A stretch of DNA of 64,000 nucleotides, taken from contig CAJGBT010000001.1 of assembly GCA_904501665.1 (NCBI GenBank), positions 657-64,656 of the forward strand, given 5' to 3'. A program made the translations under genes and the position numbers. Shown here in pieces: positions 54,854 to 56,939 of this stretch. The notes under the pieces were generated by a model. It ran no database searches, had not been told where the DNA came from, and saw only the letters and a program-made list of their open reading frames with translations. Position 1 is the first letter of the stretch; each line of letters opens with the position of its first letter. Origin of the DNA: an uncultured Bacilli bacterium (GTDB lineage Bacteria; Bacillota_I; Bacilli_A; Mycoplasmatales; Mycoplasmoidaceae).

Positions 54854-56939
54854 TTAATTTCCTCCCTTTAAAATTTTGCTTACTTCAAATGATAAATACT
54901 CACCAACTACTCTTTTAAAATCGTCGATTGTAGGTGTTGTATCAAATTTGATATGTTGATCAAAATTTCAATCATCACCATTTAAACCAATGAAATCCTC
55001 AATATAAATTTTATTGACATCTGTTTCTTGATGTTTGGTTTTTGCTGCAGATCCAGCTTTATAAATTTTTATAATATCTAAATATCTTTGTGTAGGATTA
55101 TCAATTGTAATTGTTCCCCTGCCTGTTCTTTTATAACCATCGTTTCTAAAATCAATAAATTTAACTATTTTTTCAATATCATGCGGAACATGAGCTTTGA
55201 AAATATATATGGATGTTTGAACTGTAGCATTTGGTTCAAATAAATCTTGTGGCATTTTAATTGATGCTAAAAGAGTGTGTTTTTTTAAAATTTCTTGTGC
55301 TGTTTTTTTAGCTTTTCCATTACCAGCACTATCTTGAATAATAATTGCACCTATTCCATTTTTTTCCATGATATCAAGACCAAAAGAAATAAATGGTAAT
55401 CCATTTTCTGAGTAACTAAATGGTGGATTTAATAAAATTCTATTTGGTTCAAATTCCTCATACATAGATCTTGGCATATCAAATGCATCACCTTTTTCAA
55501 TTTTTGTACTCCCATCTCCTCTTAATATCATGTTTGTTGTTGCTAATGCAAACATTTCAGCATTTAATTCAACTCCTAATAAATTATTAGATTTTATATG
55601 TTTAATTTCATTATTTGCTTTTTTTGTATTTTTCCCATATTTTAGATTTATTACATCAATAATTTTATTCATTGATGAAATTAAAAAACCAGCAGATCCA
55701 GTTGCTAAATCTAATACTCTTGAATTTTCATCTAATTCTAAAATATCTACCATTAATTTTGTAATGTATGGCGGTGTTAAAACTATACCTATTTCTTTAC
55801 CATCACCCATTGCATATTTTAAAAATTCACTATATAATTCTCCAATTAAATCAACATTATTCCCTAATAAACCATCAATACATAAATATATGTCTTCATA
55901 AATTAAAGTAAATAATTGTTTGTTGATTGAAGATGGAGAAGAAAGAATTTTTTGTATTTCTGGCAAAAATTTAGGGGGATCTTGTTTTATATCTCTTTGA
56001 TAATCTTTTTTTATCTCACTAAAAGATTTTAACATTAACTCTCTTTTGATTTCTGGTATTTTCTTATGACAAAGAAAAGTTTCAATTTTGTCATATATAA
56101 TTTCTCCATCATGATGATTTTTTGTATTTCCACCTTTTAAATCATCAGGAATTAATCCATCAATAATCTTTTTATTTTCATCTAAATAATCTTGCATTGC
56201 TAATAAACAACCAGAGACGTATAAAACTCTTTGTGGTGCTGTTATGCTTAAATTATGAAAAATTTTATTTAGTTTTTTAGATTTTTGTCTTATTTCTTCT
56301 TTTGTTTTTATAATAATATTATGTTTTTCTTCTTCATTTAATGTTATATCTTTATAAAACTCATCAAAAGATTGTTTAGATTCTAAAAAATTTAATGTAT
56401 CACATGATTGAATGTATTTATAGCTACTTTCACCAAAACCATAAACATAATAAATTAATATTCGAACATTACTTTCATTATCACCAGCTACACCAATTGC
56501 TATAACTTCATCATACTTGCCTGATTGAATCATCTTTCTTGCATAATAAATAGATCCGTTAGCAGCATATTTTTTAATTTCATTTTCTGTTTGTTTTAAT
56601 TTCATTAAATTACCAGAATGTAAATATTTTAAATGTAATTTATTTTCAAAAATTACAGGTATATTATATTTTTCAATATGAAAATCTGGTTTTCCAAAAT
56701 TTGATTTCTTTTTTGTTTTTGCAGAACCTTTTAATGAATCTTTCATATATTCACTCATTGCAGATTCTTCATTAAAATCTTTAAGTTTTTTAAAACCTAA
56801 AAGTTCTAATTGTTTTTTTACATAGTCATTAACATCAGATTCTAATTTTCAATTTAAATTTTCATATTCACTTTTATAAGCAGAGCGTCTCTCTCTCTCT
56901 CTCTCTCTCGTGTCCTACAACATTACTTTGTTTTTCCAT
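54854..56939 (-). CDS. Fused restriction endonuclease / N6-adenine DNA methyltransferase (Type IIB/IIG, BcgI-A-like), currently frameshifted by the (GA)11 tract
   Basis: GGAAAGGAGAG RBS with an ATG at 56939, then MEKQSNVVGH-(GA)11. The main frame is open from just after TAG at 56915-56917 through the repeat to TAA at 54854-54856. The N-terminus reads ...DYVKKQLELLGF...GKPDFHIEKYNIPVIFENK (PD-ExK, HSDR_N-like). Motif I is VLDLATGSAGFL and motif IV is LLNPPFS. The gene extends past the track end via TGA. Confidence 0.8.
56888..56909 (-). repeat. Dinucleotide repeat (GA)11 on the coding strand, 10 codons into the nuclease-methyltransferase gene
   Basis: Counted directly: the plus strand reads T(CT)10C at 56888-56909. 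Confidence 0.95.

Follow-up and report, generated by a model that had tools for sequence, protein, structure and literature searches.

A GA-repeat switch that very probably controls a BcgI-like restriction-modification system in an uncultured Mycoplasma

The 64,000-nucleotide stretch of contig CAJGBT010000001.1 (positions 657 to 64,656; GenBank assembly GCA_904501665.1) analysed here, referred to throughout as the window, comes from an uncultured member of the Mycoplasmoidaceae that is known only from metagenomes. On its minus strand lie a gene for a fused restriction-methyltransferase subunit (RM) and, directly behind it, a gene for a specificity (S) subunit, and ten codons into the RM gene a (GA)11 tract throws the start codon out of frame with the rest of the gene. 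In our view this is, with high probability, a contingency locus driven by simple sequence repeats (SSRs) and controlling a BcgI-like (Type IIB) restriction-modification (R-M) system of an uncultured Mycoplasma. The original prediction, made from the letters of the window, had proposed a candidate phase-variable enzyme, and it is now supported by a natural series of repeat lengths, by an allele in which the gene is in frame (ON) and by the assignment of the enzyme itself.

We infer that slipped-strand mispairing at the (GA)n tract shifts the reading frame of the RM gene. With n = 9 or 12, a short (Glu-Arg)n leader would connect the ATG at 56939 with the complete nuclease-methyltransferase, and with n = 8, 10 or 11 translation would end 18-27 codons in (OFF). 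By the example of known SSR contingency loci, an ON cell would have both restriction and N6-methyladenine (m6A) methylation and an OFF cell neither; because nuclease and methyltransferase share one polypeptide, the two activities would switch together, and switching would be reversible within a lineage. A second (GA)n tract, lying between the two target recognition domains (TRDs) of the S gene, would independently alter the S subunit, leaving it fused, divided into half-subunits or reduced to TRD1.

A GA tract at the start of the RM gene

Read on the minus strand, the start region of the RM gene (56937-56953) consists of a Shine-Dalgarno (SD) sequence, AAAGGAG (56947-56953), and an ATG (56937-56939), from which the product of the (GA)9 allele is called in another assembly. 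Ten codons (MEKQSNVVGH) lead from the ATG into the (GA)11 tract (56909-56888), which occupies codons 11-18 of the gene and is the predicted ON/OFF switch. In this frame the window encodes an OFF-state product of 21 codons (MEKQSNVVGHERERERETLCL; 56874-56939, minus strand) that closes at TAA 56876-56874. The long frame, on the other hand, opens right after TAG 56917-56915 and closes at TAA 54856-54854, giving a gene body of 686 codons and a stop (54854-56914, minus strand; genetic code 4) that is supported by profile matches, alignment, a fold model and the ratio of nonsynonymous to synonymous substitution rates (dN/dS). Direct reading and translation reproduced every coordinate that had been claimed for the SD-preceded ATG, the ten-residue peptide, the (GA)11 tract and the stop after 21 codons, and the accompanying frame arithmetic was reproduced as well: one GA unit more, (GA)12, gives a product of 695 amino acids (aa) from the ATG, and two units fewer, (GA)9, one of 693 aa. 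Early termination comes after 27 codons with (GA)10 and after 21 with (GA)11, within a range of 18-27 codons for (GA)8, (GA)10 and (GA)11, and stop codons lie close to the tract in both wrong frames. The rule for the RM tract is that n = 0 mod 3 is ON, by which the window, with n = 11, is OFF.

The tract is uninterrupted, lies inside the open reading frame (ORF), has a unit length not divisible by three and, with 11 units, is well above the 5 dinucleotide units from which a published survey counts SSRs as long enough to be hypermutable (PMC7383803). GA/TC tracts of at least 5 units occur twice in the whole 64 kb, both times in the RM-S operon, and dinucleotide-preserving shuffles give a chance expectation of 0.01 per window for (GA)6. 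The RM tract is no chance feature.

Natural alleles of the locus

Three further independent assemblies of the locus were found by exact-protein look-ups, and the four sequences carry four lengths of the 5' tract. The window has (GA)11 and is OFF, the Logan assembly SRR11528974 (L001) has (GA)10 and is OFF, the ENA assembly ERZ27234995 (L004) has (GA)9 and is ON, and the NCBI assembly GCA_045657345.1 (L005), a metagenome-assembled genome (MAG) of Mycoplasma sp. SGB_7821, has (GA)8 and is OFF; the tract in the S gene is (GA)7 in L001 and (GA)6 in the window, L004 and L005. A repeat length fixed in populations and strains had been named in the original prediction as the outcome that would speak against it, and the four assemblies instead have 8, 9, 10 and 11 units.

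The in-frame allele that had been predicted to join the long frame to ATG 56939 exists in public data as (GA)9. It was found in the 90% protein cluster of the truncated RM call, where protein P0121 (from ERZ27234995) has 693 aa, begins MEKQSNVVGHERERERRSAYK at the position of ATG 56939 and is the exact product expected of (GA)9, with one Glu-Arg pair fewer than the (GA)12 prediction. Thus RM products of full length, from (GA)9, and prematurely terminated ones, from (GA)8, (GA)10 and (GA)11, both occur in nature.

The DNA around the tracts is nearly invariant. Between the window and L001 (over 9.5 kb) and L004 (over 17 kb) there are zero substitutions, and all differences are in the GA tracts and in one TAT codon; the latter belongs to a TAT (Ile) codon repeat at about 58794, inside a Fic-domain gene (58268-59161, minus strand), in which the window is one codon shorter than L001, L004 and L005. 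L005 is 99.5% identical to the window across the R-M region, with an intact RM frame as well, and no other disruption of the RM frame is seen in any allele. Because four lengths occur amid near-identical flanks, the RM tract mutates much faster than the DNA flanking it. Flank-anchored pattern scans of JGI metagenomes and IMG/VR gave no further alleles, and a scan of genome contigs returned only the same MAG (GCA_045657345.1) and an unrelated partial match.

Genetic code and identity of the enzyme

The original prediction held that the long frame is open through the repeat. It is indeed open, for 686 codons, on a condition that was left unstated: the frame contains a TGA at 56851-56849 and a second one near its 3' end, and both must be read as tryptophan. 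TGA encodes Trp (genetic code 4) in this organism, and three lines of evidence support this, namely the low GC content of the window (24.3%), its ORF content (stop-to-stop ORFs of at least 150 aa amount to 22,079 aa under table 4 vs 12,257 aa under table 11) and the alignment of both TGAs with Trp columns among 32 homologues, where W29 is at least 90% conserved and W656 invariant. The first of these TGAs (56849-56851, minus strand) falls in the alignment on the W that is conserved in M-x-W-K-L-E, the N-terminus typical of the family. Program-made ORF calls and translations of the window use table 11, and the calls were discarded once code 4 was established. Scans of the 64-kb window for tRNAs and Rfam families gave no match, and a tRNA-Trp(UCA) is therefore not directly demonstrable.

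The repaired RM protein carries a Pfam N6_Mtase domain and matches the PADLOC REase_MTase_IIG profile (PDLC03616) over residues 31-692 (E=1e-201); in NCBIfam, methyltransferase matches were found below threshold only. Its gene body encodes an N-terminal PD-ExK nuclease, a helical linker and, from about residue 340, a gamma-class N6-adenine methyltransferase with the motif NPPF. About 2,000 related proteins are present in databases, and the best relatives, of 667-681 aa and ~60% identity, come from Haemophilus, Listeria, Streptococcus, Staphylococcus and others. In the 32-homologue alignment, the nuclease motif P83-D84...E97-x-K99 and NPPF503-506 are invariant. AlphaFold models residues 30-200 with a predicted local distance difference test (pLDDT) score of ~85-93, and the leader (residues 1-26) with less than 50. 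Foldseek matched the full length of RM to the Type IIB enzyme BsaXI, to DrdV and to LlaBIII, and the methyltransferase core also to Type I HsdM. Pfam, PADLOC, the invariant motifs and the fold model thus agree on the fused nuclease-methyltransferase that had been proposed.

Two features that define Type IIB systems are found at this locus, the nuclease and N6-adenine methyltransferase domains on a single polypeptide and an adjacent, separate HsdS-like subunit with two TRDs. The locus is assigned to a BcgI-like (Type IIB) layout, as judged from its sequence, because an RM fusion gene stands beside a separate gene for a two-TRD S subunit. The dN/dS ratio against the gene of P0002, a 77%-identical orthologue from another species, is 0.20 overall and 0.25 in the N-terminal half, and by this comparison the RM gene is maintained under purifying selection.

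A lineage-specific leader

The repeat lies in a part of the protein that relatives do not have. Of 31 homologues, 30 begin with M-x(1-13)-W/Y-K-L-E; leaders measure 2-14 aa in 28 of the 31, and the remaining three were not picked up by the motif search. The 28-aa, repeat-bearing Glu-Arg leader is unique among 171 fetched relatives. Even P0002, the closest orthologue, has neither the leader nor the 5' tract. At the place of the ancestral Met start of the homologues, the window has a TTA codon (56855-56857, minus strand), and the leader upstream of it is, by this alignment, lineage-specific. The comparison shows how such a switch is built: upstream of the ancestral start, the gene gained a new leader that carries the repeat behind an ATG and a strong SD, and the ancestral start codon was then lost. 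The TTA was considered as an alternative initiator and judged improbable, as it has no SD and TTA is a very rare start codon, being merely a nominal initiator of table 4.

The specificity gene and its second GA tract

The S gene (53755-54852, minus strand) begins 2 nt past the stop codon of RM, has its own SD (GGGAGGAAA) and encodes 365 aa with two TRDs, identified by two Methylase_S matches and by PADLOC as Specificity_II; a homologue of it bears the name Type IIB specificity subunit. A second tract, (GA)6 (54304-54315, minus strand), is placed in the linker that joins the TRDs; it varies among the assemblies and had been missed in the original prediction. An ATG in an alternative frame, 13 nt upstream of this tract (54326-54328, minus strand), starts a TRD2 half (S2) when n = 1 mod 3. 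Frame analysis gives three states of the S gene: fused when n = 0 mod 3, S1 and S2 when n = 1 mod 3, and S1 only when n = 2 mod 3. The fused 365-aa S is found with (GA)6 in the window, L004 and L005. With (GA)7, L001 has a split S, consisting of S1 (186 aa, TRD1) and S2 (191 aa, TRD2), and S2 is called as a gene there.

The same arrangement is found in a second species, 77% identical and represented by assemblies from two separate samples (L002 and L003), where (GA)7 stands at the same position and S is split; both have an analogous ATG in the alternative frame, in the register suited to their own sequence. In an 86%-identical S (P0123, L011), on the other hand, the tract is interrupted and the gene is fixed as a fused one. 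The S tract resembles that of NgoAV in that it lies between the TRDs and that its natural lengths give full-length or truncated S. In addition, fusions of RM with half an S subunit, 866 aa long, occur among the homologues and suggest that single-TRD S modules can work in the RM family. On this analysis, changes of the S tract probably alter the sequence that is recognised. It is possible, but for the present a tentative idea, that the two tracts form a combinatorial switch, in which the 5' tract would turn the system ON or OFF and the S tract would cycle through three specificity states (fused, S1 + S2, and TRD1 only).

In the central helix of S, the peptide QYIKEIEA occurs twice, owing to a 24-bp direct duplication (54357-54404, minus strand). 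This was considered as a recent or variable spacer repeat of the EcoR124 kind and rejected, as distant homologues share the doubling (ERIKELESERIKELEA) and there is no variation among the alleles.

Alternative explanations

Several points weigh against the interpretation as an SSR-driven contingency locus. All four sequences of the RM-S locus are consensus assemblies derived from metagenomes and not clones. With three OFF alleles among four, the gene might also be one that is mostly dispensable. SD cores are missing from most genes here, so that the lack of one is no bar, in OFF cells, to a start at Met 56758 or 56746, and the S2 half-subunit has no visible SD either, its expression being presumed. 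The Foldseek match of RM to BsaXI (E = 6e-9, over 663-677 columns) has a template modelling (TM) score of only ~0.32, probably as a result of domain orientation. Furthermore, cutting on both sides of the recognition site is a prediction for this enzyme.

The alternative that best withstands the evidence is that the tract switches restriction only: ribosomes in OFF cells would start or restart at Met 56758 or 56746 and make a protein of 630-634 aa that methylates and does not cut, and methylation would be constitutive. In fact, gene callers annotate a 630-aa form (P0001, P0122) started inside the RM gene, and the methyltransferase domain and the PD...ExK motif are both encoded downstream of Met 56758. 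The original prediction had argued that the long frame has no start codon before Met 56758 and that this Met has no SD. The first statement holds for ATG, GTG and TTG; the second is true, yet it makes a weak argument because the SD core precedes only 14 of the 33 long ORFs in the window, which leaves internal initiation unhindered on that account. However, Met60 (Met 56758) is an internal residue that is invariant in 32/32 homologues, so it is no lineage-specific start. The family-invariant residues E32, D34, N36, K50, D53 and N55 of the same alignment fall between the RM tract and Met 56758, and OFF-state products would therefore lack part of the nuclease domain; such a truncation removes the first helix of the confidently modelled domain as well and could destabilise the protein. 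Neither an SD nor a promoter signal is detectable at the internal Met, the promoter and terminator scan as a whole being uninformative in such AT-rich DNA (46 sites vs 51 expected). Moreover, the OFF allele of MmyCI in M. mycoides has no activity (PMC3498834). The upstream ATG at 56939 appears to be needed, as far as the conservation of the family can tell, and we consider a switch of restriction alone unlikely.

It is still less probable that the RM gene is a decaying pseudogene, with a frameshift at a mutation-prone repeat and lengths that reflect neutral drift. The three alleles that are out of frame would fit such decay, and repeat-bearing BcgI-like systems of H. pylori have been reported inactive (PMC3936762); yet the 2-kb frame is free of any other lesion in all alleles, one of them reads through intact, and dN/dS is as low as 0.20. 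A dedicated leader holds the tract, preceded by a strong SD and with stops near by in both wrong frames, which is the known architecture of contingency genes (PMC3498834), and the second tract stands at the canonical position between the TRDs and is conserved in two species.

Could the length differences be artefacts of assembly or sequencing at a dinucleotide repeat, in a sequence that is truly uniform? All data are short-read metagenome assemblies, and SSR lengths can be mis-called (PMC7383803). However, the tracts measure 16-22 bp and fit inside single reads and inside the assembler k-mers (the ENA and NCBI contigs bear a k141 prefix), and four lengths were found in four independent datasets, together with a difference in the second tract, while up to 17 kb of flank is identical. 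Mixed reads would themselves mean heterogeneity of the population, and we hold an artefact to be very improbable.

Repeats can in principle promote slippage. Nevertheless, constitutive expression of RM, whether by programmed ribosomal frameshifting or by transcriptional slippage at the GA tract, is hardly credible, as the known RNA polymerase slippage requires homopolymeric A/T runs, neither a stimulating structure nor a slippery heptamer is seen in the sequence, and the lengths vary in the DNA itself, with one allele directly restoring the frame.

Comparison with known systems

To our knowledge, neither BcgI nor BsaXI is repeat-controlled. The likeness of the present locus to these two enzymes lies in its make-up, an RM subunit with PD-ExK and gamma-class m6A methyltransferase domains together with an HsdS-like subunit (PDB 8w0p and 8w2p for BsaXI).

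The closest functional precedent for an SSR-controlled locus of this kind is the Type III mod gene MmyCI of M. mycoides subsp. capri, which is OFF with AG12, where stops follow just past the tract, and ON with AG10, and whose ON and OFF clones were shown experimentally to differ in methyltransferase protein and activity (PMC3498834). The two share the same genus-level group, the same repeat unit, a similar repeat length and the placement of the tract inside the coding region. However, Mod and Res are separate proteins in MmyCI, a Type III system whose tract starts at nt 320 of mod, whereas the present locus has a fused Type IIB-like enzyme, a tract in an N-terminal leader (codons 11-18) and a second tract in S.

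In architecture, the closest precedent is given by the BcgI-like systems of H. pylori, HP1471/HP1472 and JHP1364/JHP1365 (Hpy99XXII), in which a poly-G tract in S, with G13 vs G14 between laboratory stocks, truncates the S subunit (PMC3936762). Here, too, an RM fusion gene is accompanied by a separate S gene, but the H. pylori repeat is a poly-G homopolymer in S only, the RM gene is without a switch and the systems were silent in the strains studied. A fused restriction-methyltransferase polypeptide switched by an intragenic SSR is known from C. jejuni, where the Type IIG gene cj0031 carries a poly-G tract and switching alters site-specific m6A methylation and gene expression (PMC4889913). Unlike the present enzyme, cj0031 is a single-chain Type IIG protein with a built-in TRD and a poly-G repeat, and it has neither a separate S subunit nor a second switch of specificity.

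For the S tract, parallels exist among Type I systems. AG[n] tracts lie between the TRDs in at least 14 hsdS genes of Mycoplasmataceae, and in the NgoAV-type model, worked out for a poly-G tract, full-length S and truncated S (as dimers of half-S) give different specificities (PMC7383803). The present tract likewise consists of AG/GA units, separates TRD1 from TRD2 and, by its length, decides whether S is full-length or truncated. Those S subunits, however, serve Type I HsdM/HsdR, whereas this one would serve a Type IIB-like RM fusion, and here n = 1 mod 3 also opens a separate TRD2 half-gene with an ATG of its own. In our searches, which covered open-access text, we found no description of a Type IIB system with a tract in the RM leader and a second varying tract in S.

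Genomic neighbourhood

Upstream of RM, an ORF of 59 aa (56961-57140, minus strand) ends 21 nt before the RM start; it resembles ribbon-helix-helix proteins, with a weak match to PF19891 (DUF6364). It may be co-transcribed with RM, and its product may be a controller of R-M expression or an antitoxin that belongs to the neighbouring Fic genes. From 57162 to 63785 (minus strand) there follow about 15 small ORFs on the same strand, mostly without family matches; they include two paralogous Fic-like genes (both phrog_11900) and an ASCH gene (phrog_3136, 2e-38). L005 and the window are 99.5% identical in the R-M genes and only 95% identical at 60.6-63.9 kb. It is possible that a mobile or phage-derived island carries the R-M system.

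A DprA-like gene (DNA_processg_A; 51953-52780, minus strand) is found some 1 kb downstream of the R-M operon. A competence-type gene for DNA processing, beside a restriction barrier that can be switched, may bear on DNA uptake.

Significance

Repeat control of R-M genes is already known in mycoplasmas, and the present locus is a well-supported further case. In Mollicutes, SSR phase variation was known for Type III mod and Type I hsd genes, and a fused Type IIB enzyme can now be added to them. As regards the question of a phasevarion, support extends as far as a switchable methyltransferase. The analysis also corrects an annotation, as pipelines call a truncated methyltransferase of 630 aa at this locus. 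For metagenomics, it means that tract lengths can mark sub-populations within one strain that differ in their methylome or in their barriers to phage or DNA uptake. A specialist will not be surprised by such a locus, but with its allele series of 8, 9, 10 and 11 units, its ON allele and its second tract it is well suited to experiments. If the S tract reprograms specificity, the locus would offer combinatorial epigenetic switching in a compact model; and if the dual switch is true, at least four epigenetic or defence states would arise from a single two-gene locus, which would be the first such case described for a BcgI-like enzyme.

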